DNA from: a virus | Virus genome (UHGV): UHGV-1842250 | Length of the DNA stretch: 13,971 bases | Strand: one strand, 5' to 3' | Shown here: positions 1-11,391 of the stretch, piece by piece | Layout: the number at the start of each line of letters is the position of its first letter | Position numbering within the stretch: the first letter of the stretch is position 1 | Translations under genes and position numbers: made by a program | Notes under the pieces: model-generated | Seen by the model: the letters and a program-made list of their open reading frames with translations, nothing else | Told to the model about the DNA's origin: nothing | Database searches by the model: none

Positions 1-46
1 TTAACAGCTAACTCATAGCAAATCATTCCTATTCAGATACCAACTC

Positions 47-79
47 AACCCTCTGTTTTTGCAGAGGGTTTTTGTTTTT
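47..79 (+). terminator. Rho-independent terminator ending a transcript that enters from the left
   Basis: 9-bp perfect stem AACCCTCTG (47-55) / CAGAGGGTT (62-70), 6-nt loop, then T-tract TTTGTTTTT (71-79). The reverse strand has no U-tract, so it is unidirectional. Confidence 0.6.
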
Positions 80-135
80 ATGTATTCATTTCTATTCACT
101 CTACACCATATTTTTCGGCGGTACAGGTGACGGTA

Positions 136-150
136 TTACCTTAAAGGTAT
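136..150. promoter_or_regulatory. Operator-like site upstream of int (TTACCTTAAAGGTAT), nested in a larger inverted repeat
   Basis: Matches the window-wide TTACC-N5-GGTAA motif at 9 of 10 fixed positions. It contains the 13-bp perfect palindrome TACCTTAAAGGTA and is flanked by TGACGGTAT (129-137) / ATACCGTCA (158-166). It overlaps a candidate -10, TATACT (148-153), about 40 bp before the int start. Confidence 0.4.
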
Positions 151-192
151 ACTCTCATACCGTCATGAAAATGGTTTCTATACGGGTGAATT

Positions 193-1449
193 GTGCTTAC
201 CGATACAAAATTAAAAAACCTCAAGCCGCAGGACAAACTGTACAAGGTCTCCGATCGTGACGGGCTGTATGTAGCTGTGCTTACGTCAGGCACGGTCTCG
301 TTTCGCTATGACTACCGTATCAACGGTCGCCGCGAAACACTGGTAATCGGGCAGTATGGGCGTGACGGTATCAGCCTGGCAGAAGCGCGAGAAGAACTGA
401 TTGCTGCAAAGAAGCTGCTTAAAGCAGGCCAGTCGCCGGCTGCGGCTAAACGTGACGGTATCAAAAAGATTCGTGGTGCCGAGACGTTTGCGGTACATAC
501 CGACAGTTATATGAAACACGTCATCCTGGCTGACAGTACCCGCGCAATGAAGCAGGCGGTGATCGACCGTGACATACTTCCGGTTCTTGGCAACAAAATG
601 ATGGCTGAAATTACCACATCGATGGTTCGTGATTTGTGTGACCGGATTGTCGAACGCGGTGGTCGGGCAACAGCAGTACAGGCCAGGGAGATCATCAGCA
701 GCGTATACCGTCACGCCAATGACCGTGGTCATGGTTTGTTTAATCCTGCGGCTGACATTAAACCTTCGTCTATCGCCATATTTAAACCACGAGAGCGAAC
801 ACTGACACCAGAAGAAATTGGCCTGTTCTTCCGCACGCTGGATGCCATTTGTGCTATGGGCACTATGAAAATGGCTTTAAAGCTGGTGCTTATCACTATG
901 GTTCGTAAAGGCGAATTCACCAATGCAACGTGGGATGAAATAGATTTTAAAAAATGGACATGGACAATTCCTTCAGACCGCATGAAGGGAAGCCGGGCGC
1001 ACGTTATTTACCTGCCTAAACAGGCACAGGATATATTGGTTGGGTTGCAGATGTGCGCTGGTGGAAGTGAATATCTGGTTCCTGGTCGTTACAATTTCCG
1101 GAAGCCATTATCTAATGCCGCGCTGAACTCTCTGATCGACAGAACGGTGAAAATAATAAATGAAGATGGTGAGCATATTCAGGACTTCACCGTACACGAT
1201 ATGCGCCGTACAGCAAGTACGTTGTTGCATGAGGCTGGTTATCCTTCAGACTGGATTGAAAAGGCTCTGGCACATGAGCAGAAAGGTGTGCGCGCCGTAT
1301 ATAACAAAGCGGAATACGCCAGACAGCGCGCCTACATGTTGCAGCAGTGGGCCGATATGATTGATTCCTGGATTAACGGGGAGCATACGGATCTGATTCC
1401 GTTCTCCCCGTCGAAGTTTGAGAGGTGGATGGAAGACAGTAATAAATAA
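193..1449 (+). CDS. int: Tyrosine site-specific integrase, P4/IntS-like family
   Basis: 418-aa ORF with GTG start. The N-terminus (MLTDTKLKNLKP...DGLYVAV...G...RY) is typical of P4-type integrases, and the C-terminus has catalytic-region motifs (HDMRRTASTLLHEAGY ... YNKAEYARQR). Confidence 0.93.
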   Translation: MLTDTKLKNLKPQDKLYKVSDRDGLYVAVLTSGTVSFRYDYRINGRRETLVIGQYGRDGISLAEAREELIAAKKLLKAGQSPAAAKRDGIKKIRGAETFAVHTDSYMKHVILADSTRAMKQAVIDRDILPVLGNKMMAEITTSMVRDLCDRIVERGGRATAVQAREIISSVYRHANDRGHGLFNPAADIKPSSIAIFKPRERTLTPEEIGLFFRTLDAICAMGTMKMALKLVLITMVRKGEFTNATWDEIDFKKWTWTIPSDRMKGSRAHVIYLPKQAQDILVGLQMCAGGSEYLVPGRYNFRKPLSNAALNSLIDRTVKIINEDGEHIQDFTVHDMRRTASTLLHEAGYPSDWIEKALAHEQKGVRAVYNKAEYARQRAYMLQQWADMIDSWINGEHTDLIPFSPSKFERWMEDSNK

Positions 1450-1451
1450 TT

Positions 1452-2111
1452 CTATCCTTCCTGGACTTTGGTAAGCGTCAGATTTCCGCAGAACACTGCG
1501 CCGGTGTCGATGTACATCTGGTTTGCATACACCAGTGGGTGATGTGCTGGCGTATGACCGAAGATGAACAAATCGGCACCGGTTATCTCCGAGACAATAC
1601 CGTCCTGCGCGTCGCTAACCCGCTCACGATTCCATATCACCATTTCTTCTGGTACTTGCTTATCGAATGCGTATTCGTTGTGCGGGTAGTCTGCGTGACA
1701 GATGACGACCTTCTTATTGCCGGTAACCAGTTCGATAATCATCGGGAGGTTGGTAATCTTTGGCAGAAGGTATTTGAGTTGCACATCCTGCTCAGAATCA
1801 AGTTGGTGCCACCATCCACCGCCGTTTGACATCCAATGTCCGAAACTTCCGCCGTTGACCAGTGCATCCAGCATCATCTGCTCATGGTTGCCACGAACAG
1901 CTCGGAACCACGGCATAGTAATCAAATCCAGGCATTCGACGTTTTCAGCGCCGCGGTCAACAAGGTCACCAACGGAAATAAGTAAATCGCGCGCCGGGTC
2001 GAATGAAACTTTGTCGAGTTCGTTCATCAGCAGCGTGTAGCACCCATGCAGATCGCCGACGACGAAGATATTGCACCAGTCAGCGCCATTGATGCGTTGA
2101 TATAGGTTCAT
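1452..2111 (-). CDS. Ser/Thr protein phosphatase, lambda-PPase / PrpA-B family metallophosphoesterase
   Basis: The translation carries the metallophosphatase signature GDLHGCY ... GDLVDRG ... GNHE ... ICHADYP ... GHTP. Start refined to the ATG at 2111 ([12 protein letters not shown]), which overlaps the upstream stop as ATGA; the track's longer N-terminus runs into the upstream gene. Stop TAG at 1452-1454, 2 bp from the int stop. Confidence 0.93.
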
Positions 2112-2758
2112 GCTGCACGCTCCCGCCCCTGGTTGTCTATTGGTGACACCGGAGCATTGCTGAATGCATTTGTTAATCCGCCAATATCCAACGCGTATCC
2201 AGGGTGTAGTTGCACTGCCGGGTCTTCGCACTGATTACCCCAAACATCGAAGCCATGAGACGTCTGGCGGGCGAACAGTTCAATGCGAGAAACATCGCCT
2301 AACAATTGCACAAGTTTTTCACGAACGACATCTGGTTTTCTTGAATGCTCAAGCCGCGGTGCGGTAAATGACTGAACGATCCCTGCATTAATGCGTGGAG
2401 GTAGTTTTCCCTTTACTGCAAACAGGCAATCTTCACTATTGGCGCGAGTCATGTGTCCCATACCCATAACCAGTTTATCTGGTTGTCGACTACCACATTT
2501 TATCCACGTGAAGCCCTTCATCGTCATCAGACGAAATCCCCAGGCTTCAACAACTTTTAGTGCTTCGAGTGGTTGTGTTGGCACCCACCACATGGCCAAC
2601 AGACAGTTTTCAGCGGTCAAATCCCACACAGGAAGGCGGCAGATATCCAGCACACTCATAACTGGATATTTAAAACCGGCACCGCGATTACCATCTGCGG
2701 CTTTGTCCCGGTATACCCAGGGTGGATCTGCATAGATTAGTGTGTATTTCTTAGTCAT
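2108..2758 (-). CDS. MT-A70-family DNA N6-adenine methyltransferase
   Basis: N-terminus [16 protein letters not shown] contains the DPPW catalytic motif of MT-A70 / phage Dam-like methyltransferases. Start ATG at 2758 is preceded by a G-rich SD (GGGGTGG); the stop TGA overlaps the phosphatase ATG as ATGA. Confidence 0.88.
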
Positions 2759-3050
2759 AAACCACCCCACAACATCCTATGCCGCTATAGTCGCCACGGC
2801 GAAGGCCGTTACCTTTTGTGATACATTGGTCCCTGCGAACCGCGATCCTTGCACGTTCAACATCACCAGAAGCAACATCCATACACTGAAGCCAAAGGTG
2901 AGCGGCAATGCGGAATTGCCCTTTTTTCTCTCTTTCAATCGCGCGTTTTTCGATCTCTATCGCCGCAGGAGTAACGGCGACAATCTTTGAAGGGCTGCGC
3001 ATTGAAACCTTGTTCATGTGATATTTTTCAAGTCGGCTTAACTTTCTCAC
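2751..3050 (-). CDS. Hypothetical protein, function unknown
   Basis: Only sizeable ORF filling the 400-bp gap between the excisionase and methyltransferase genes on the operon strand. GTG at 3050 is preceded by GAGGG; alternative ATG starts at 3017 and 3002. Its 3' end overlaps the methyltransferase start by 8 nt. I recognise no family. Confidence 0.45.
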   Translation of the reverse strand: MRKLSRLEKYHMNKVSMRSPSKIVAVTPAAIEIEKRAIEREKKGQFRIAAHLWLQCMDVASGDVERARIAVRRDQCITKGNGLRRGDYSGIGCCGVVYD

Positions 3051-3159
3051 TTAATCCAACCCTCTCTGAAAATTAATGCCAGCAGATAAAGCCATGCTGA
3101 AACAGAGGCCAGGAATAAGTACCATCCTGACCATTTGCTCCAGTGCCTTAGCAGCGCAC

Positions 3160-3408
3160 TCATGCAGCGTTGCTCACAGGACGATATACACGTTGCTGAA
3201 CAGGAGGCTTTTTACCCTGGAACTCTGCCGGGCTTGCAGCCTGACGTTCATCAAGCCAACGCTCAACTTCGTCACGGTTCCATGCGCAGCGTTTGTCAGT
3301 GATATACCAGCGTTTAGGAAATTCCCCTGCGCGCTCCATACGGTCGATAGTGCTCCATGACAGTGGCACCACCGCCAGGAGTTCCTTCTTACCTAATGCA
3401 CCTTTCAT
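3160..3408 (-). CDS. AlpA/Vis-type excisionase or transcriptional regulator (small HTH protein)
   Basis: 82 aa with an AlpA-like motif (LLAVVPLSWSTIDRMERAGEFPKRWYITDKRCAWNRDEVERWL). SD GAGAGG sits 6 nt before the ATG at 3408. This type commonly partners P4-family integrases. Confidence 0.82.
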   Translation of the reverse strand: MKGALGKKELLAVVPLSWSTIDRMERAGEFPKRWYITDKRCAWNRDEVERWLDERQAASPAEFQGKKPPVQQRVYRPVSNAA

Positions 3409-3430
3409 AAATACCTCTCTTGGTTGCAGT

Positions 3431-3451
3431 GCGGCGCGCGTGGCGCCGCGG
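3431..3451 (-). other. GC-rich hairpin between the bet and excisionase genes, no U-tract
   Basis: GCGGCGC (3431-3437) pairs with GCGCCGC (3443-3449) around a 5-nt loop. No T-run follows on either strand, so it is not a canonical intrinsic terminator. Confidence 0.3.
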
Positions 3452-3457
3452 TGGTGG

Positions 3458-4399
3458 TTACATAGATGTTTCGTTTAATTCTTCTCGACGAACGCTGTAA
3501 ACGTCGGTGGCTTTTGCCAGCAGTTCGTCATCATCTGAAAGTTTTTGTGCAATGTATTTGTAAGCCTTATCCAGTTCGGAGACAGTGCTGTAATTCATCG
3601 CTGCGCTGGTAAAGGCCATCAGCATTTCTTCTGGATCACGGCTATCCGATTTACGCGTTTGCTCATCAGGCTTTTTCGCTGGTTTAGCGTTGATCAGACT
3701 GTTCATTCCCGCAGCAGTGGTCGTTTGCGGAGTAATGTCTCGCTCAACGCGCGGTGCCGTTTCCTGTAATTCGTCTGGGGTGTAGACGCCCATGATTACG
3801 TCAGGACAGTGCAGGCGAGACCAGCGTTTTGTCGCAAGGTATGCGAGTTGTTGTTTCGGATCACTGGCCCAAAGTGTGGAGTTTCTTACCTGTGCTTGAG
3901 ACAGCATTAACTCAAGCACTCGAGGTTGATCCTCGCCCTTCATGGTTGCCCATACGCGAACACCGCAGCCTTCTTCGTCTTTTAGAGTCCAGCCTGGTGC
4001 GATATATGGATTGCCGTTTTTGGATGTTTTCTCAACAAACTTACCGATCACGCGTTCCCACGGCCCAAACCACTCGTAGTTGATGCGATCTTTTGTTGGC
4101 GACATCGTTGAGATAACTGCGTTTACTAATTGGGCTTCATAACCTAGCGTGCCGTTCACAACATGGGTTTTCTGAGCCACGGCAAACGGGTTCATTCCCC
4201 ACTGCGCAGCCTGCATTGCCACGGCCATGCAATCAGCTGGTTTCCCGGCGAGGTGCGCCGGTACCGTTACGCGGCTTTGCGCCATTACCTCGGCGAATTT
4301 CATCAGTTGGTTCAAGCCGTCTGGGCTGAAAATAGTTGCAGCAGTTCCAGCGATTGCTGTGTCTACTGGTGCGTTGATGTTTGCGATGTCGTTGCTCAT
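3458..4399 (-). CDS. bet: Single-strand annealing protein, RecT/Red-beta (Bet) family
   Basis: 313 aa. The segment ETAPRVERDITPQ resembles the lambda Bet region ERQPERDITPV, and the gene sits directly downstream of an exonuclease gene as in the lambda exo-bet pair. Start ATG at 4399 has AGGA upstream and overlaps the exonuclease stop (ATGA). Confidence 0.85.
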   Translation of the reverse strand: MSNDIANINAPVDTAIAGTAATIFSPDGLNQLMKFAEVMAQSRVTVPAHLAGKPADCMAVAMQAAQWGMNPFAVAQKTHVVNGTLGYEAQLVNAVISTMSPTKDRINYEWFGPWERVIGKFVEKTSKNGNPYIAPGWTLKDEEGCGVRVWATMKGEDQPRVLELMLSQAQVRNSTLWASDPKQQLAYLATKRWSRLHCPDVIMGVYTPDELQETAPRVERDITPQTTTAAGMNSLINAKPAKKPDEQTRKSDSRDPEEMLMAFTSAAMNYSTVSELDKAYKYIAQKLSDDDELLAKATDVYSVRREELNETSM

Positions 4400-4926
4400 A
4401 TGTACATATCCTGTTTGCGTGCCCACTCAGGGCGTTTAATGATTTCCACACCGCCCCATTCATCATTGATGCGGCATTCGTGATAGGTATTCAGATCCCG
4501 GCGGAACAGAGCGTGCCCGGCATCGACATCCTGCGCATCCAGCTCGAACACGCGTACCGGATACCGACCACAATCAATGCTTTCGCTCACGGCAAGAAAG
4601 AAAAAACCATGCGGCTGACCAGTAACCCTCATTGCGCCTTCGCGGTACATTGCGTCCTGCACGTGGTAGCGGAATTCCTCGATGTGGCGTGCAAAACGGT
4701 CCATATCTGCAACCTTTTTCACGTCGACGATCACGTTGTGCTCGTTCAGCCATTTGTCTGGACGAATTCGGCACAACTCACCCGTCTCTTCATCGTTCCA
4801 GTACATTGATGCTTCGCAGTAACCAGGTGCTTCCAACATCCAGCGTGCCGCCGGATGAGCCATTGCGCTATCACGCATAAGCTCCAGTTTCCGCCACTGC
4901 TCGGCATCAAGTACCGTAATCACCAT
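4396..4926 (-). CDS. PD-(D/E)xK exonuclease, C-terminal part (gene interrupted by a frameshift)
   Basis: Contains the nuclease core motifs RIRPD ... VIVDVKKV. This reading frame is open from 5130 to 4396, but its first ~55 codons overlap the N-terminal fragment's frame and look non-coding; 4926 is the first internal ATG. The partner fragment is 4937..5212. Confidence 0.7.
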   Translation of the reverse strand: MVITVLDAEQWRKLELMRDSAMAHPAARWMLEAPGYCEASMYWNDEETGELCRIRPDKWLNEHNVIVDVKKVADMDRFARHIEEFRYHVQDAMYREGAMRVTGQPHGFFFLAVSESIDCGRYPVRVFELDAQDVDAGHALFRRDLNTYHECRINDEWGGVEIIKRPEWARKQDMYI

Positions 4927-4936
4927 ATCCGCCACA

Positions 4937-5212
4937 TCACGAAGCCTCTTCGTCAGCTTTACCTTGTTTCGTCCGACGATCGAATTTCGGTGAAACAATG
5001 AAGCGTTTGTCGAACTCTCCAGGCTCCAGAAGCAGACAGTGCAATGCGGTTCCCATATCCAGTGCAGACTTTTTCTCTTCGTCTTCTGGTGCTGCCTGAA
5101 CCCATTTAAGAAGCGCCGGATTCTTGGCAACCATGTCCAGTTGCGACTTACTCACGCCGTCACCGGCGTGGTAGTCTTCGTTGCTGATGTCGAAATAAAT
5201 TCCCGGTTTCAT
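4937..5212 (-). CDS. PD-(D/E)xK exonuclease, N-terminal part (ends at a premature stop after a probable frameshift)
   Basis: 91 aa beginning MKPGIYFDISNEDYHAGDGVSKSQL ... GTALHCLLLEPGEFDKRF, which looks like the N-terminal region of phage Cas4/RecB-like exonucleases. Good SD (GAGGGA) before the ATG at 5212. The frame stops at 4937 while a second frame continues the nuclease domain. Confidence 0.7.
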   Translation of the reverse strand: MKPGIYFDISNEDYHAGDGVSKSQLDMVAKNPALLKWVQAAPEDEEKKSALDMGTALHCLLLEPGEFDKRFIVSPKFDRRTKQGKADEEAS

Positions 5213-5508
5213 GCCGCGTCCCTCTGTCCATCAAGCTGATCCGCCAGATCCCAGCGGGCGATAATTGCCATTGCCTCGCGCCGGTAGGCATCCATAAGTT
5301 CTTCGAACTCAGGGCTGTCTTTAGCTGCCTCCAGCACTTCCTGGCGAACTCCTTTGCCTGTTACAGCGTCAAAAGTTGAGGCCAGTTGATGAAGCCGGAT
5401 GCTCTCGATCAGTTCAACTTGTCGGTCATATAACTGTTCTGACAGGCGGTAGTCCTTGTCGAATGCCAGCATGATTTTTTGAAGATTTTTCTGCTGATTA
5501 ACGTTCAT
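5209..5508 (-). CDS. Hypothetical early protein, function unknown
   Basis: 99 aa from the ATG at 5508 (MNVNQQKNLQK...), which has a strong SD (GGAGG, 8-nt spacing). The stop overlaps the exonuclease ATG (ATGA). It sits where lambda carries N, but is not arginine-rich, so not N-like. Confidence 0.6.
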   Translation of the reverse strand: MNVNQQKNLQKIMLAFDKDYRLSEQLYDRQVELIESIRLHQLASTFDAVTGKGVRQEVLEAAKDSPEFEELMDAYRREAMAIIARWDLADQLDGQRDAA

Positions 5509-5510
5509 TA

Positions 5511-5663
5511 TCAGCCCTCCCATATCTCGTTATCGTTGGCTACATCGCGAGCTTCTTTGCTGACGAAAGCCCACTTAATGCCTTCCTGTAAGGTGCGGAA
5601 CTTCCAGCTCATGAATCCGCATGCAGTAACGCAGTACCAACCGTTGATGATTTTCCACTGCAT
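5511..5663 (-). CDS. 50-aa micro-ORF, first gene of the leftward operon, possibly cIII-like
   Basis: Translated by hand as MQWKIINGWYCVTACGFMSWKFRTLQEGIKWAFVSKEARDVANDNEIWEG. It lies about 27 nt downstream of the predicted leftward promoter, has GAGG upstream, and stops 2 nt before the next start. Loose resemblance to lambda CIII (MQYAIAGW..AGC ... RKLRDGWKRLI). Too short for the ORF track. Confidence 0.35.
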   Translation of the reverse strand: MQWKIINGWYCVTACGFMSWKFRTLQEGIKWAFVSKEARDVANDNEIWEG

Positions 5664-5682
5664 AACTTGTTACCTCGGTCTG

Positions 5683-5697
5683 TTACCGTTGAGGTAA
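5683..5697. promoter_or_regulatory. Operator site, perfect palindrome TTACCGTTGAGGTAA, promoter-proximal in the leftward (PL-like) promoter
   Basis: Exact TTACC-N5-GGTAA. It abuts the candidate -10 of the leftward promoter, and an extra TTACC half-site sits at 5670-5674. Confidence 0.6.
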
Positions 5698-5725
5698 TAA
5701 TTATGCGTATATGGTTTGGTGTCAA
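5697..5725 (-). promoter_or_regulatory. Candidate leftward early promoter (PL analogue)
   Basis: On the minus strand: perfect -35 TTGACA (5725..5720), 17-bp spacer, -10 AATTAT (5702..5697). Flanked by operator sites at 5745-5759 and 5683-5697, the same layout as the promoter at 8778-8806. Confidence 0.5.
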
Positions 5726-5744
5726 TAGATATGAGTTAAAAAAA

Positions 5745-5759
5745 TTACCCGTTAGGTAA
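5745..5759. promoter_or_regulatory. Operator site, perfect palindrome TTACCCGTTAGGTAA, promoter-distal in the leftward promoter
   Basis: Exact TTACC-N5-GGTAA, centred 62 bp from the site at 5683-5697. Confidence 0.6.
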
Positions 5760-5772
5760 TCGAATAGGCAAT

Positions 5773-5795
5773 AAAAAAGCCGCCATAAGGCGGCT
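5773..5795 (-). terminator. Rho-independent terminator after the repressor gene
   Basis: On the minus strand, stem GCCGCC / GGCGGC with 4-nt loop followed by a U-tract (plus strand AAAAAAGCCGCCATAAGGCGGCT), about 20 bp after the repressor stop codon. Confidence 0.65.
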
Positions 5796-5816
5796 TACTT
5801 ACTGAAAAATATGATT

Positions 5817-6401
5817 TTATTGTTTGTTTTTTTCGTTCTGGTTGATGACAAATTCAATGTAACTTTCGATCTTTGCCTTCTCTGTTTCAGGTAACAATGC
5901 GTAGCGCGAGCGGTCATAGTTGATAGTTGCAGGGTCATGCGGATGAATCAGTAGTTCATATCCGTGACGCCCGAATGCAGATGCAACATTCTCCAGGGTG
6001 GAAATGGAAACGCTGACCTCATTGTTTAACAGGCGGCTTATTGTCACCTGGGCGACGCCGGATGCGCGGTGAAGTTTTCCCTGAGTTGAAAGGTCGCGGC
6101 TTTCACTCATCCAGCGTTCCAGGTTGTGAGCTGCCAGCTGACCAATGTCGCTTGGGCCGACAGGCTGAAAACCTTCCTGAGAAAGCGAGCGATCGATATC
6201 AAGCCAGTTACGGGGTTTATTGGCGGCAGCTTCAATTTTTCGCGCAACCTGGTCGCCGATAACTTTCTTGCCAAGAGCCCAGCGGTTTACCAGATTTGCC
6301 TGAGTTCCAAGTTTTTCTGCCATCCGCGTCTGAACACCATTGAATTCACGGTCGATCAAGTCGTTGAGATTTTGCCTGCGGACGTCCTGGATACTTTTCA
6401 T
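5817..6401 (-). CDS. Phage repressor (cI analogue) with two HTH domains and no recognisable LexA/S24 autocleavage domain
   Basis: 194 aa, divergent from the Cro-like gene across an operator-rich spacer. HTH-like segments QTRMAEKLGTQANLVNRW and ASGVAQVTISRLLNNEVSVSISTLENVA. No S24 peptidase serine-lysine dyad or Ala-Gly cleavage context seen. No SD before the ATG, so the transcript may be leaderless. Confidence 0.8.
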   Translation of the reverse strand: MKSIQDVRRQNLNDLIDREFNGVQTRMAEKLGTQANLVNRWALGKKVIGDQVARKIEAAANKPRNWLDIDRSLSQEGFQPVGPSDIGQLAAHNLERWMSESRDLSTQGKLHRASGVAQVTISRLLNNEVSVSISTLENVASAFGRHGYELLIHPHDPATINYDRSRYALLPETEKAKIESYIEFVINQNEKNKQ

Positions 6402-6456
6402 TTTCTGGAAAATCGCCTCATATATGAATCAGTAGATGATTCAATTTAAAGCAATA

Positions 6457-6519
6457 TTACCCAACAGGTAAATGCACCTCATAGGTAACTATCCTTGATT
6501 TTTGTTACCTTATGGGTGA
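6457..6519. promoter_or_regulatory. Immunity-region operator cluster of three sites between the repressor and cro-like genes, with divergent promoters
   Basis: Sites at 6457-6471 (TTACCCAACAGGTAA, perfect), 6474-6488 (GCACCTCATAGGTAA) and 6505-6519 (TTACCTTATGGGTGA). Candidate rightward promoter: -35 TTGATT (6494-6499) or TTGTTA (6502-6507), -10 TATTAT (6525-6530), overlapping the third site. Confidence 0.6.
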
Positions 6520-6555
6520 ATATTTATTATCTGAAATAAATATCAGGCAATAGCT

Positions 6556-6786
6556 ATGAGCGATAACGGACATTTCGATTTCAAAAAGCACTGGCTTGCA
6601 CTTACTCCGGATGAGCGTGAAGCCTTCGCACAGGAAGCCGGAACGACGAGTCACTATATCCAGACTCACTTAACAGGTAAGCGCAAAATGCCAGGTAAAG
6701 TATTGATGAATGGGCTTTTTAAAGCCTGTAAAACAAGACAATGGCTGCGCTCAAAAGCAGAACTGGCATACTTCTTCTACTCATGA
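6556..6786 (+). CDS. Cro/CII-like small HTH regulator, first rightward gene
   Basis: 76 aa at the cro position of the divergent immunity cassette, with an HTH-like segment EAFAQEAGTTSHYIQTHLTGKRK. Followed immediately by an intrinsic terminator. Confidence 0.75.
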   Translation: MSDNGHFDFKKHWLALTPDEREAFAQEAGTTSHYIQTHLTGKRKMPGKVLMNGLFKACKTRQWLRSKAELAYFFYS

Positions 6787-6807
6787 TATCCAGCTACAAC
6801 CCTCTGT

Positions 6808-6830
6808 AGACCGCCACCCGGCGGTCTTTT
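6808..6830 (+). terminator. Rho-independent terminator after the cro-like gene (tR1-like position)
   Basis: Stem AGACCGCC (6808-6815) / GGCGGTCT (6820-6827), loop ACCC, T-tract at 6827-6830. Confidence 0.6.
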
Positions 6831-6841
6831 CATATCTATTC

Positions 6842-6856
6842 GTACCTCAAAGGTAA
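6842..6856. promoter_or_regulatory. Operator-like site GTACCTCAAAGGTAA between the terminator and the replication genes
   Basis: 9 of 10 match to TTACC-N5-GGTAA, with the ACCTCA core shared with the sites at 5683, 6474 and 8806. An AT-rich stretch with weak promoter-like hexamers follows (6870-6920). Confidence 0.4.
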
Positions 6857-6934
6857 TAAAAAACCAAATATGGTTGATCAAATTTTCCAATTGTGCAAAA
6901 TAGCCAATATCAATAACAAAAAGGGGCGGAAAAA

Positions 6935-7147
6935 TTGAAGATAGTAACCAGAATGGAGGCCGCAAAAGCCGGGTTAAATCGCTATTTCACAGGAAAGCGG
7001 TGCCGTCACGGCCATCTCTCTGAAAGGTATGTTCTGAACGGAACATGTGTTGAATGTGCAATGAATAGCGCCAACCGCCATCGTAATGAATTTGCTTGTG
7101 CACTAAAGAGTGCAAGAGGGGAAACCTATGGCAAGCAGCTGGATTAA
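6935..7147 (+). CDS. Small Zn-ribbon protein (C-x3-H...C-x2-C), function unknown
   Basis: 70 aa from a TTG start at 6935, preceded by AAGGGG; the internal ATG at 6953 has no SD. Motif RCRHGHLSERYVLNGTCVEC. Its end overlaps the start of the O-like gene by 20 nt. Confidence 0.55.
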   Translation: MKIVTRMEAAKAGLNRYFTGKRCRHGHLSERYVLNGTCVECAMNSANRHRNEFACALKSARGETYGKQLD

Positions 7148-7958
7148 GGTTGAAGTTATCACTCCTGATAAACCTGAAATTTTTCAGATAGCAGAAATTC
7201 TGGGTATTGATCCAGATGCTGTTCTTGGAAAGCTGGTTCGTATATGGGCATGGGCTGACCAGCAAACAATAGACGGTAACGCTGGCAGCGTTACAAAAGG
7301 AGTACTTGATAGACTCGCTTTTATTACAGGATTTGCTGACGCCCTCATTAGCGTCGGATGGCTTGCTTATCATGACGGCAAACTAATTCTTCCAAACTTT
7401 GAGCGACATAATGGAGAATCATCGAAAAAACGTGCACTTACGAATAGAAGAGTGGCAGAGCATCGAAAACGAGTAACGCAAAAAGTAACGCCAACAGCGT
7501 TACAAAAGGAGTTACCAGAGGAAGAGGAAGAGGAAGATATATATAAAACCCCACACATAGCGCACGTGCGCGAGGGTGCTCCGACCAGTGAAGCGAACGG
7601 TATGCCGTTGCAGGTGGCTGAACCTGAATTTCTGGATGGCCTGAGTGAACCCATCGGGAAATTTCCGATGACCGATGGCTGGCATCCGTCGCCGGATTTT
7701 CGACGGCGTGCTGCGCTGTGGGGAACGGCCCTGCCGGAACCGGAATTTACACCTGCTGAACTTGCTGCATTCCGGGATTACTGGATGGCTGAGGGCAAAG
7801 TGTTCACGCAGGTTCAGTGGGAACAAAAATTCGCCAGGCACGTAAATCATATCAGGGGAAAATCAAAAAACGCCGGGAAAAGCGATGAGCTTGACTGGAA
7901 TAACACTGACTGGATAGAAGGGGTGTGGGATGAAATCAACTCCAGAACTTCTCAATGA
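7128..7958 (+). CDS. Replication initiator (lambda O analogue) with DnaT-like C-terminal domain
   Basis: ATG at 7128 preceded by SD GAGGGG. C-terminal motif PSPDFRRRAALWG...PEPEFTPAELAAFRDYWMAEGKVFTQVQWEQKFARHV resembles the DnaT/primosomal C-terminal domain. Iteron-like repeats and an AT-rich patch lie inside the gene, and the lambda-P-like gene follows directly. Confidence 0.8.
   Translation: MASSWIKVEVITPDKPEIFQIAEILGIDPDAVLGKLVRIWAWADQQTIDGNAGSVTKGVLDRLAFITGFADALISVGWLAYHDGKLILPNFERHNGESSKKRALTNRRVAEHRKRVTQKVTPTALQKELPEEEEEEDIYKTPHIAHVREGAPTSEANGMPLQVAEPEFLDGLSEPIGKFPMTDGWHPSPDFRRRAALWGTALPEPEFTPAELAAFRDYWMAEGKVFTQVQWEQKFARHVNHIRGKSKNAGKSDELDWNNTDWIEGVWDEINSRTSQ
7276..7548. repeat. Candidate replication origin inside the O-like gene: iterons, 18-bp exact direct repeat, (GAGGAA)x3 and AT-rich patch
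   Basis: GTAACGC at 7276, 7473 and 7485; its inverse GCGTTAC at 7288 and 7497 (12-bp periodicity in the second cluster). CAGCGTTACAAAAGGAGT is repeated exactly at 7286-7303 and 7495-7512 and is read in different codon frames (AGSVTKGV vs PTALQKEL). CATCGAAAA(A)ACG at 7420 and 7461, GAGGAA x3 at 7518-7535, GATATATATAAAA at 7536-7548. Confidence 0.6.
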
Positions 7959-8706
7959 GTACGATCGCTTACGTGAGCATGGTGTTGCTGTGCATGAAGA
8001 GCGGCGTGACAGCAATGGCAAAAAGGAGCAGGTTGCTAGAATTTTCAATGAACTATTTGTCCAGTTACAGGCTGCATTTCCTGCAAGCGTTTCGACCATA
8101 AGGGAGCAGAACAAACTTAATGAATTCCGTAAGCAATGGATGCTTGCGTTTCTGGAGAATGGGATCACAACAATGGAACAGGTTAACGCTGGTATGCGCC
8201 ACGCCCGCGCCAGTGAATCTCCGTTCTGGCCGTCGCCTGGGCAATTCATCAAGTGGTGCAAAGACAGCAAGATGGTTCTTGGCGTCACCATTGACGATGT
8301 GATGGCGGAGTTTCACCGGTACAGCAAGGAAAAAAGTTTATATCCTGGTGGTCCCGAAAGATTCCCGTGGCGACATCCGGTTATGTACTGGGTCGTATGT
8401 GATACCCGCCGTGCAATGTATCAGCGCCAGCTTAGCGAGATTGAGGTTGAGAAACACGCGCGCAGGCTGCTCGATGATTGGGCGAAAAAGGTGGCTTCCG
8501 GACAGCAGATACCCGATCCGGTGATCAGCATACAGGCAAAGCCAGAACCCATGAGTACACCTCCGGACACAGGGAGAGACGTTTACCATCCACCAGGGCG
8601 AAGTTTCGGGTGTATGCCTAACGCCGCCACCCTGGGGGGAATAACACCGGCGCAGTGGCTGATGGAGGAATACAGGCGGGGAAAGGCGGCAGGATTTATC
8701 AAGTAA
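7930..8706 (+). CDS. P: Replication protein P-like DnaB helicase loader
   Basis: Strong resemblance to lambda P over the block VARIFNELFVQLQAAFPAS...FRKQWMLAFLENGITTMEQVNAGMRHAR...PFWPSPGQFIKWC (lambda P has ...ATFPAS...RRQWVLAFRENGITTMEQVNAGMRVAR...PFLPSPGQFVAWC). Start overlaps the end of the O-like gene. Confidence 0.93.
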   Translation: MKSTPELLNEYDRLREHGVAVHEERRDSNGKKEQVARIFNELFVQLQAAFPASVSTIREQNKLNEFRKQWMLAFLENGITTMEQVNAGMRHARASESPFWPSPGQFIKWCKDSKMVLGVTIDDVMAEFHRYSKEKSLYPGGPERFPWRHPVMYWVVCDTRRAMYQRQLSEIEVEKHARRLLDDWAKKVASGQQIPDPVISIQAKPEPMSTPPDTGRDVYHPPGRSFGCMPNAATLGGITPAQWLMEEYRRGKAAGFIK

Positions 8707-8712
8707 TACCAG

Positions 8713-8730
8713 CGCGATAGCGCATTTTTT
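8713..8730 (+). terminator. Weak candidate intrinsic terminator after the P-like gene
   Basis: 4-bp GC stem (GCGC / GCGC) with GATA loop followed by seven T residues. The stem is short, so this is low confidence. Confidence 0.3.
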
Positions 8731-8743
8731 TACGTCTTGATAA

Positions 8744-8758
8744 TTACCTGCTAGGTAA
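8744..8758. promoter_or_regulatory. Operator site, perfect palindrome TTACCTGCTAGGTAA, promoter-distal in the promoter for the accessory block
   Basis: Exact TTACC-N5-GGTAA, centred 62 bp from the site at 8806-8820, the same spacing as the pair at the leftward promoter. Confidence 0.6.
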
Positions 8759-8777
8759 TAAAATGTTCTAAGATCTA

Positions 8778-8806
8778 TTGATTTCGTGTCTTATGTGGTT
8801 TTTAAT
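8778..8806 (+). promoter_or_regulatory. Candidate sigma70 promoter for the accessory block, duplicated PL-type architecture
   Basis: -35 TTGATT (8778-8783), 17-bp spacer, -10 TTTAAT (8801-8806). The flanking sequence CTATTGA and the operator spacing match the leftward promoter at 5697-5725. Confidence 0.55.
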
Positions 8807-8820
8807 TACCTCAGGGGTAA
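8806..8820. promoter_or_regulatory. Operator site, perfect palindrome TTACCTCAGGGGTAA, overlapping the -10, start region and SD of the gene at 8824
   Basis: Exact TTACC-N5-GGTAA. Its GGGG also serves as the ribosome-binding site for the ATG at 8824. Confidence 0.6.
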
Positions 8821-8823
8821 ATC

Positions 8824-9168
8824 ATGAGAAAACAGATACAGGCTCTTGGTCGACTCAAAACAGGCCAGATGAACAAAACAGAATCTGCGTATTGCCAGCA
8901 CCTTGAGCAGCGTAAACGTGCAGGGGAAATCGCCTGGTATCGATTCGAGGGTATCAAGTTGCGGTTAGCTGACAACACGTTCTATACGCCCGATTTTGCT
9001 GTGATGCTCGCCACCGGCGAGATGGAACTGCACGAAGTGAAAGGTTTCTGGACCGACGACGCCAGGGTGAAAACCAAAGTCGCCGCAGATCAGTATCCGT
9101 TCCGAATCATCGGGGTAACGGTTAAGCCAAAGAAAGCAGGTGGTGGCTGGAACATCGAAGAGTTCTGA
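8824..9168 (+). CDS. DUF1064-like phage protein with PD-(D/E)xK-like nuclease motifs
   Basis: 114 aa with YTPDF ... HEVKG, consistent with a D ... ExK nuclease core. Family name is from memory. Confidence 0.7.
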   Translation: MRKQIQALGRLKTGQMNKTESAYCQHLEQRKRAGEIAWYRFEGIKLRLADNTFYTPDFAVMLATGEMELHEVKGFWTDDARVKTKVAADQYPFRIIGVTVKPKKAGGGWNIEEF

Positions 9169-9229
9169 ATCGACGATCTTTTTAGTTATCAATGTAATCA
9201 ATAAGTTATGTGGATAAGCGAGGGTAAAG

Positions 9230-9724
9230 ATGGAAAGTAATATCAAAGGGTTAGTTGCCGCCGGGCATGAGATGGCTTCGGAACTGAAAGCAGAATGTGG
9301 TGCCGTTGATATGCGCAGTGTGGCAAAGCTGATCAGCGATTTGGCAGCGCAACTGGAAGTGCAACTGGTGCGTGCTAATGCGCTGGCCGAAGACCACCAG
9401 AGAGCGATTGAGTCAATTAAGCAGGCTGATTCGGCTGTTAAGTTGGCACACGAGAAGTTTTCGGCGCTGGCGGCGGAGAATGCGGGGCTGAACAAGTTCA
9501 TCAAAGATGATTGCTGGATTTGGGATGACAAAAGTGAAGAGTATTTCGACGCTGCTGACTGTATGCCAGAAACCCCAGCCACCGACGCCTCCCTTGCTGA
9601 AGTGCGGGCGCAGGGTGTGGAAGCATTCGCCAATAGCCTGAAGGTTGCCGGTGGTCATGAACATCCATATTCAGCGGTAGCCAACGAGTTCGCCGACCAG
9701 CTTCGCAAAGGAGGCAACCAGTGA
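9230..9724 (+). CDS. Hypothetical coiled-coil protein, possibly ead/Ea22-like
   Basis: 164 aa, SD GAGGG before the ATG, predicted helical N-terminus. The family assignment is tentative recall, not verified. Confidence 0.55.
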   Translation: MESNIKGLVAAGHEMASELKAECGAVDMRSVAKLISDLAAQLEVQLVRANALAEDHQRAIESIKQADSAVKLAHEKFSALAAENAGLNKFIKDDCWIWDDKSEEYFDAADCMPETPATDASLAEVRAQGVEAFANSLKVAGGHEHPYSAVANEFADQLRKGGNQ

Positions 9725-10353
9725 GCGAAATTAATTACCAGGCACTGCGTGAGGCGGCGGAACGTGCAATTCCAGCAATGGAACGCCTGTTAATGTTGCC
9801 AGTTGATGATGATCTGATAAGCGAACAGGAACTTAAAGATTACGGCGTGGATATTGATGCGCTCAACGCCTTCAAATTTCTGACCGGACCAGAAACCGTG
9901 CTGGCGCCGCTGGATGAACGGGAAAGAAACCAGCAATACATCAAATCCCGCGACCAGGAGAACGAGGAAATTGCGCTAACGGTTGGGAAGCTGCGTGTTG
10001 AGCTGGAAGCAGCAGAATCAAAACTCAACGAGCAGCGTGAGTATTACGAAGGTGTTATCTCGGATGGAAGTAAGCGCATAGCAGAACTGGAAGCGCGGGA
10101 AATAAAACCAGCCAAAGGTGAAGTTCTGGTCGTTGTATCTGGTTTTACTGGTTGCGGAAAAAGCGCCATTGCCGGGGAAATAGAAATCGCGATGAAGGCT
10201 ATTGGTGTACCGGTTAAGTGGACTAATGGCGATGCAGAAAAGCGCATGACTGGCGCTGACTGGCTGACTGCGATTGAGATGTACAAACCAACTGTGCGCA
10301 TCGTGGAAGTTAATGTGCCACGCGCCGCTGGCATTCGCATCAAAGGAGAGTGA
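9721..10353 (+). CDS. Hypothetical coiled-coil protein, possibly ead/Ea22-like
   Basis: 210 aa from a GTG start that overlaps the previous stop (GTGA), with AGGAGG upstream. N-terminus MSEINYQALREAAERA, a glutamate-rich coiled-coil centre, and a GCGKS-containing C-terminus. Confidence 0.55.
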   Translation: MSEINYQALREAAERAIPAMERLLMLPVDDDLISEQELKDYGVDIDALNAFKFLTGPETVLAPLDERERNQQYIKSRDQENEEIALTVGKLRVELEAAESKLNEQREYYEGVISDGSKRIAELEAREIKPAKGEVLVVVSGFTGCGKSAIAGEIEIAMKAIGVPVKWTNGDAEKRMTGADWLTAIEMYKPTVRIVEVNVPRAAGIRIKGE

Positions 10354-10548: not shown

Positions 10549-11391
10549 ATGACCACTATTACCAAAGAACGTATCGAATTATTCATTAAAAATCCGCTTG
10601 ATAACGGGCTTACTCGTGGCGAACAAATGGAACTGGCACGAATTGCACTGGCATCACTGGAACGCGAACTGATTCGCCACGAGCATGCCAAATGGTCTGA
10701 CTCCACATTTGGCTGCGTTGGCCCCATTGGTCCACTGAAACACCTCTCAAAAGAGGCTCTGGAAGCCGCAGCCGAACCAGACGATCTCAGCGAGTGGGCT
10801 GATATGCATTTCCTGTTGTGGGATGCACAGCGCCGTGCTGGCATCAGCGATGCTGAAATTACCGCTGCTATGGAAGATAAATTGAAGATCAACATGGAGC
10901 GCCAGTGGCCTGAACCAAAAGATGGTGAGCCTCGCTTGCACATTAAAGAACCCGGCAACTCTCCGGTAATTCCGGATGGTTTATCCACGGTATGCGCTGA
11001 GGCTTATCAGGTTGTAGGAGTTATGGCAGATGCGCTTGGTGTATTCGGTGATGCAGCAGTACAGAAAGTTCTGGATAACCTGTCACAGCAAAAACTTGTT
11101 CACAGAGATGTGCTGCCGTTCTCGCTTCCGGTAACTCCGGATGGTTGGGTTATGGTGCCGAAGAAACTAACCGCTGAGAACGGCGCTAAGGGTGTGCTAT
11201 CCGGTGAATTTTCAGAAACTACGTTTATAAGCTGCCCGGAATGCTTTGGCGATGATGATTGCGATACCTGTGACGGGAGCGGACGAATTGAAATTAAAGT
11301 ACCAGTCACGTGGACGACCATAAAATCCATTTGGGATAAAGGTATTGCGCATTTTGCAGCAAAACCGCCGCAGGAGGTTAACCGTGGCTAA
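10549..11391 (+). CDS. MazG-like nucleotide pyrophosphohydrolase domain protein (DUF550-like) with C-terminal Cys-rich Zn-ribbon
   Basis: 280 aa. The N-terminal helical segment (GEQMELARIALASLERELIRHEHAKW ... EWADMHFLLWD) resembles the MazG/DUF550 all-alpha NTP-pyrophosphatase fold. C-terminal CPECFGDDDCDTCDGSG is a metal-binding knuckle. Starts 2 nt after the previous stop. Confidence 0.55.
   Translation: MTTITKERIELFIKNPLDNGLTRGEQMELARIALASLERELIRHEHAKWSDSTFGCVGPIGPLKHLSKEALEAAAEPDDLSEWADMHFLLWDAQRRAGISDAEITAAMEDKLKINMERQWPEPKDGEPRLHIKEPGNSPVIPDGLSTVCAEAYQVVGVMADALGVFGDAAVQKVLDNLSQQKLVHRDVLPFSLPVTPDGWVMVPKKLTAENGAKGVLSGEFSETTFISCPECFGDDDCDTCDGSGRIEIKVPVTWTTIKSIWDKGIAHFAAKPPQEVNRG

Follow-up and report, generated by a model that had tools for sequence, protein, structure and literature searches.

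The window, a stretch of 13,971 nucleotides from the virus genome UHGV-1842250, was found to carry a single gene of the recE type (Pfam DUF3799, PF12684; positions 4396..5212, minus strand), the two parts of which lie in different reading frames as a result of a 5-bp deletion. The product is predicted to be a 5'-3' double-stranded DNA exonuclease of the RecE family, and the gene is a disrupted copy rather than an intact member of that family because of the deletion at 4943-4945 and the stop codon at 4939..4937. It seems probable that the deletion is a real, biological event, very recent and private to this genome, giving a loss-of-function allele.

As the earlier note had described, the gene begins with a 91-codon open reading frame (5212..4937) and its remainder continues in the +1 frame down to 4396, as seen both in the table of reading frames and in the sequence. 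The features on which the analysis of the coding region depends are the following.

4937..5212, minus strand: open reading frame of the N-terminal fragment, 91 codons, with residues 1-90 native and Phe91 changed to Ser, followed by TGA
4396..4941, minus strand: remainder of the exonuclease in the +1 frame, native residues 93-273, with the native stop at 4398..4396
5041..5039, minus strand: codon of His58, equivalent to RecE His-652, inside the N-terminal reading frame
4758..4756, minus strand: codon of Asp154 in the PD motif, inside the +1-frame remainder
4725..4723 and 4719..4717, minus strand: codons of Asp165 and Lys167 in the DVK motif, inside the +1-frame remainder
4943..4945, minus strand: junction of the 5-bp deletion, with CATTT or ATTTC missing from the coding strand
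4937..4939, minus strand: premature TGA created by the frameshift, two codons past the junction

Direct reading of the 91-codon frame from its ATG at 5212 gave the tail ...GKADEEAS-TGA, that is ...RRTKQGKADEEAS-TGA. In the +1 frame no stop occurs between 5130 and the native stop at 4398..4396, and the translation there includes ...KRLRDVADMVITVLD...; from 4941 onward it reads RDVADMVITVLDAEQ..., and the PD...DVK nuclease motif falls in this downstream part, where the earlier note had placed it. As His58 and the PD and DVK motifs are in different frames, the active site is incomplete in each piece.

The switch of frame had been expected within 4940-4990, and alignment of the DNA with that of E. 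coli 1517k, phiV10 and Enterobacter phage Tyrion located it at the lower edge of this interval. These relatives have GAGG-CATTT-CTTCG where the window has GAGGCTTCG, the undeleted junction being GAGGCATTTCTTCG. The deletion point is either 4945/4944 or 4944/4943, the ambiguity being due to a 1 bp C microhomology, and codons 90-92 of the intact gene (EEA-FL-RD) are affected. The gene is accordingly 817 nt long in the window and 822 nt (273 codons) in intact relatives. In the intact sequence the deletion site is surrounded by a 5-bp inverted repeat, GAAGA-GGCATT-TCTTC, which together with the 1 bp microhomology is too weak an argument, either way, on a slippage mechanism.

In E. coli strain 1517k the same gene is one 273-codon open reading frame. 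A Pfam profile search with the intact or repaired 273-aa protein gave a score of 80.9 bits against DUF3799 (PF12684), for which the curated cut-off is 26 bits; the C-terminal piece by itself scored 56.8 bits over profile positions 68-220, above the cut-off, and the N-terminal piece by itself scored 21 bits over positions 1-55, under it. Residues 12-268 aligned without gaps to chain positions 5-261 of PDB 3H4R, the nuclease domain of RecE (E = 3.1e-77), the query being the intact allele, from which the window departs at one residue besides the deletion. The 3H4R chain has 265 residues, and the histidine at its position 51 is RecE His-652; residue n of the window gene corresponds to RecE residue n + 594, and residues 12-268 to RecE 606-862. 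The active-site set of His58, Pro153-Asp154 and Asp165-Val-Lys167 is all encoded in the window DNA, and the catalytic residues of RecE are presumably those numbered Asp748, Asp759 and Lys761. An active-site role is described for RecE His-652 (PMC11611040, section 2.3), and PD-DXK is the signature of the RecE nuclease (PMC11611040).

RecE (exonuclease VIII) of the Rac prophage, the protein of 3H4R, is therefore homologous to the window gene over nearly the whole nuclease domain, has the same His...PD...DXK set and is likewise paired with a downstream recT. It differs in that the window gene consists of the nuclease domain alone (273 aa), without the N-terminal extension of about 560 residues present in RecE, and has its frame broken after codon 90. 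The Exo and Red-beta proteins of phage Lambda correspond in function to this pair, Exo being a processive 5'-3' exonuclease of the same PD-(D/E)XK superfamily and Red-beta an annealase (PMC11611040). However, Lambda Exo is of a different family, being a trimer of the YqaJ type with a PD-EXK motif, and the annealase of the window is RecT and not Bet.

The exonuclease gene lies between two others with which it overlaps, and a promoter-like site and a terminator-like hairpin were located upstream of them.

3458..4399, minus strand: recT, 313 codons, intact, its ATG overlapping the exonuclease stop as ATGA (4399..4396)
5209..5508, minus strand: upstream gene orf99, 99 codons, its stop overlapping the exonuclease ATG as ATGA (5212..5209)
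5697..5725, minus strand: promoter-like TTGACA-17-AATTAT, a consensus match to 10 of 12 sigma-70-like positions
5796..5777, minus strand: strong terminator-like hairpin directly after the repressor gene, upstream of the promoter-like site

The earlier note had spoken of a Bet-like annealase as the partner of the nuclease; an annealase gene does adjoin the exonuclease gene, overlapping its stop, and its product is of the RecT family (PF03837, 151.9 bits in Pfam) instead of Bet. The mechanically called recT frame starts at GTG 4426 (window 3458-4426, minus strand, 322 aa), and the real start was placed at ATG 4399 (313 aa) on the basis of annotated homologues and the ATGA overlap. The two ATGA overlaps indicate that orf99, the exonuclease gene and recT form a translationally coupled chain. 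The site at 5697..5725 is likely to be the start of a leftward early operon that includes the exonuclease gene and recT, as judged from its consensus match, promoter-like sites being no more numerous in the window than in shuffled sequence.

As the allele is written, translation from the native ATG would halt after 91 codons, and the product would keep the active-site histidine and be without the PD...DXK residues. The positions of the motifs thus point to a loss of function, the 91-residue product being predicted to have no nuclease activity; a C-terminal product, if made, would be without the helix that bears His58. The deletion was probably tolerated because the nuclease is dispensable to a prophage, or to a phage that grows on a recombination-proficient host. 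RecT, which is intact, might continue to anneal single strands. It may be expressed less, since ribosomes would terminate some 540 nt ahead of the ATGA junction and the coupling would be lost, and Rho polarity downstream of the premature stop is possible. The Shine-Dalgarno sequence of recT itself is weak (-4.1 kcal/mol for the duplex with the anti-Shine-Dalgarno sequence), and a consensus scan disclosed no promoter-like site between the lesion and recT.

Judged from its genes and their order, the window is the left arm, from integrase to large terminase, of a temperate phage or prophage of the phiV10/epsilon15-like Uetakevirus group. Matches to vB_EcoP_ZX5, PAS61, TL-2011b, HEMP4 and phiv142-3 cover 76-80% of the window at about 96-97% identity, and phiV10 covers 61% at 97.9% identity. 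In relatives the phage adjoins guaA, with the integrase on the guaA-adjacent side. The Uetakevirus phages phiV10, TL-2011b, vB_EcoP_ZX5 and Tyrion and their E. coli prophages share with the window the order orf99, exonuclease, recT, alpA, perC, MT-A70, int. Their exonuclease VIII/RecE-like genes have 76-99% DNA identity to the window gene and are in one frame and 822 nt long (823 nt in phiV10), in contrast to the 817 nt of the window.

All comparators that cover the site retain the five bases; among them are 89 rows inspected out of 478 genome records of E. coli, 28 records of phages and every one of the 108 fetched loci other than phiV10. The match spans 822 nt in each of the 30 best rows of the 478 E. 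coli records, and also in 59 of 59 full-length rows when 60 evenly spaced rows of these records were taken, down to 76% identity; the sole partial row among these 60 has 807 nt for 802 query bases. Among phage records, 26 of the 28 with full coverage span 822 nt, the exception being the phiV10 lineage with 823 nt. When 110 loci matched over the full length were fetched, 108 had an intact 822-nt reading frame, and the remaining two are phiV10 itself. The identical RecT protein was found in 8,248 blocks of a public collection, with a single 273-aa DUF3799 gene upstream in 10 of the 10 places shown. Comparison of the repaired window gene with 75 distinct alleles gave a median dN/dS of 0.09, which indicates that the gene is normally kept by purifying selection.

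The exception presented by phiV10 is of a different kind. Its sequence has AAAA in place of the AAA found in the window and in other relatives, 17-20 nt before the exonuclease stop (equivalent to window 4414-4416), and the extra A joins the coding sequences of the RecE-like exonuclease and RecT in a single open reading frame of 586 codons (phiV10 record 3001-4761; the record is also present in IMG/VR). The span is likewise 823 nt in O157 typing phages 9 and 10, which suggests a true allele of the lineage, a natural exonuclease-annealase fusion.

Two other parts of the window differ from its relatives. Between the integrase and MT-A70 methylase genes, positions 1452-2231 (minus strand) encode a Metallophos (calcineurin-like) phosphoesterase, in a slot that appears to be a variable cargo position, as it is occupied in relatives by DUF1382, a DndB-like protein or AntA. 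The prophage of E. coli KC-Dl-1, although collinear elsewhere, has nothing that matches the mosaic segment 9492-11659, in which two genes were noted: one is Ead/Ea22-like (9721..10353), and the other (10549..11391) encodes a protein of 280 aa that includes a dATP/dGTP pyrophosphohydrolase domain (PF04447).

The deletion allele is private, being seen in no other genome searched. When a 66-nt query across the junction was compared by megablast with 5,426 complete E. coli genomes, identity was at most 93% and always accompanied by the 5-base gap. Neither an exact 26-mer nor a degenerate 32-mer of the deleted junction had a match in IMG/VR, in a set with one genome per GTDB species or in JGI metagenomes; the intact junction, which served as a positive control, was found in 101 IMG/VR contigs. 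No exact-protein record of the 91-aa product was present among 153 billion gene positions. A metagenome contig of 1,147 nt (ENA ERZ21883564 NODE_3043) is 99.6% identical to window 3782-4928 and stops 16 nt before reaching the deletion, so that it is uninformative on the deletion. Because the contig stops there, the first gene called on it corresponds exactly to the 176-aa product from ATG 4926, which is on record solely as this cut gene.

An indel had been proposed in the earlier note as the cause of the split, either as an error or as a real inactivating mutation, and the comparison with intact homologues bears this out; of the two origins, mutation is the one that the evidence favours. The nearest collinear relative of window 1-9492 is the prophage of E. 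coli KC-Dl-1, with 98.6% identity over 9,497 aligned columns, and the deletion is the only gap in these columns. The rest of the window has no frame-breaking indels relative to its best matches, and the other genes tested (integrase, Metallophos phosphoesterase, MT-A70 methylase, PerC, AlpA, RecT, repressor, Ead/Ea22 and small terminase) are intact. A general indel problem or gene decay was also looked for in the window and none was found; the window accordingly represents neither a decaying prophage nor an error-rich assembly. As there is a single gap in 9.5 kb and the other tested genes are intact, the record is not prone to indels; moreover, the site is neither a homopolymer nor a tandem repeat, and a 5-bp loss outside a homopolymer is atypical of the errors of short-read and long-read platforms. 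Taken together, these two points favour a real mutation. It is possible, and considered somewhat unlikely, that the gap arose by an error of sequencing, consensus or assembly, and that the real phage has a normal gene of 273 codons. This is consistent with the uniqueness of the deleted allele among all collections searched, and with the fact that the gene is intact in all other non-phiV10 loci and under purifying selection. Restoring CATTT, furthermore, makes the gene base-for-base the same as the intact allele of IMG/VR IMGVR_UViG_2563366942_000017 (dN = dS = 0). This identity means that the deletion is either very recent or an artefact, and it fits both equally well. The flanking DNA of IMGVR_UViG_2563366942_000017 differs from the window by about 1.3% despite the identity of the repaired exonuclease gene, which suggests that recombination transfers the exonuclease allele from one phage backbone to another.

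The remaining explanations take the sequence as correct and assign a function to the two frames. That they are genuinely separate genes is suggested by the map of reading frames alone, and was named in the earlier note as something that homologues might disclose; the probability is next to nil. Both frames align end to end, without gaps, to the single domain of the solved structure 3H4R, and both align to one 822-nt gene in every relative; this reading was thus ruled out by the comparison with homologues. Restoration of the full-length protein, either by a programmed +1 ribosomal frameshift, in the earlier note already the less likely cause, or by slippage during transcription, is very improbable as well. 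A programmed +1 shift next to UGA, with an upstream Shine-Dalgarno-like element, is known from prfB, and the window is superficially similar in that the required shift is +1, beside a stop, with GAGG just upstream, 2 nt before the last sense codon. Unlike prfB, however, it has no slippery codon, since by general pairing rules the Ala and Ser tRNAs of GCU UCG UGA cannot re-pair in the +1 frame with CUU and CGU, and there is no run of A or T on which RNA polymerase could slip. The frameshift is absent from all homologues compared, whereas recoding sites are conserved, and GAGG is ordinary coding sequence of the intact alleles. As there is no slippery site and the frameshift is absent from relatives, the programmed shift was set aside. 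There is, finally, the case in which the deletion is real and termination at TGA 4939..4937 is followed by a restart at GTG 4935 or ATG 4926, the fragments then assembling non-covalently across a surface loop into a working nuclease. Three features are relevant to it.

4933..4935, minus strand: in-frame GTG (native Val95), candidate restart codon, 1 nt past the premature stop
4948..4945, minus strand: Shine-Dalgarno-like GAGG with 8-nt spacing to GTG 4935
4924..4926, minus strand: in-frame ATG (Met98), second candidate restart codon, with a poor Shine-Dalgarno sequence

The predicted anti-Shine-Dalgarno duplex at GTG 4935 (-5.8 kcal/mol) is about as strong as that at the native exonuclease start (-6.3 kcal/mol), and the loss would be limited to Phe91-Asp94. 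The break corresponds to RecE residues 684-688 and falls inside the loop 665-698, which is largely disordered in the crystal (PMC11611040). Against this, the same loop is conserved and thought to capture DNA (PMC11611040), and a RecE-type enzyme would have to assemble into a tetramer ring as well. The GAGG does no more than encode part of the native Glu-Glu-Ala, as it does in all intact alleles, and it also serves, and would favour, an out-of-frame ATG at 4937 that opens a reading frame of 5 codons. No relative has a split gene, and nothing suggests selection for a split. A functional two-piece enzyme is thus conceivable but unsupported, and its probability is low. If it existed, the restart would bring ribosomes to the native stop and preserve the coupling to recT, and the allele would show split-protein complementation occurring naturally in a processive exonuclease that forms a ring. 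With its break in a disordered loop and a restart codon beside the stop, the allele could provide a ready-made test of whether a RecE-type ring tolerates splitting.

The preferred reading remains that of a real and recent deletion which inactivates the exonuclease. A known single gene with a private 5-bp frameshifting deletion is an ordinary finding and matters little beyond annotation, where a single frameshifted recE-like gene (a pseudogene, or a site in need of correction) should be entered in place of two hypothetical proteins. A real deletion would leave the phage with RecT but without the nuclease, and single-strand annealing would then be expected to persist and efficient recombination at double-stranded DNA ends to be lost. 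An annealase without a nuclease is a known and tolerated state, as annealases alone are used for oligonucleotide recombineering (PMC11611040, Table 1).
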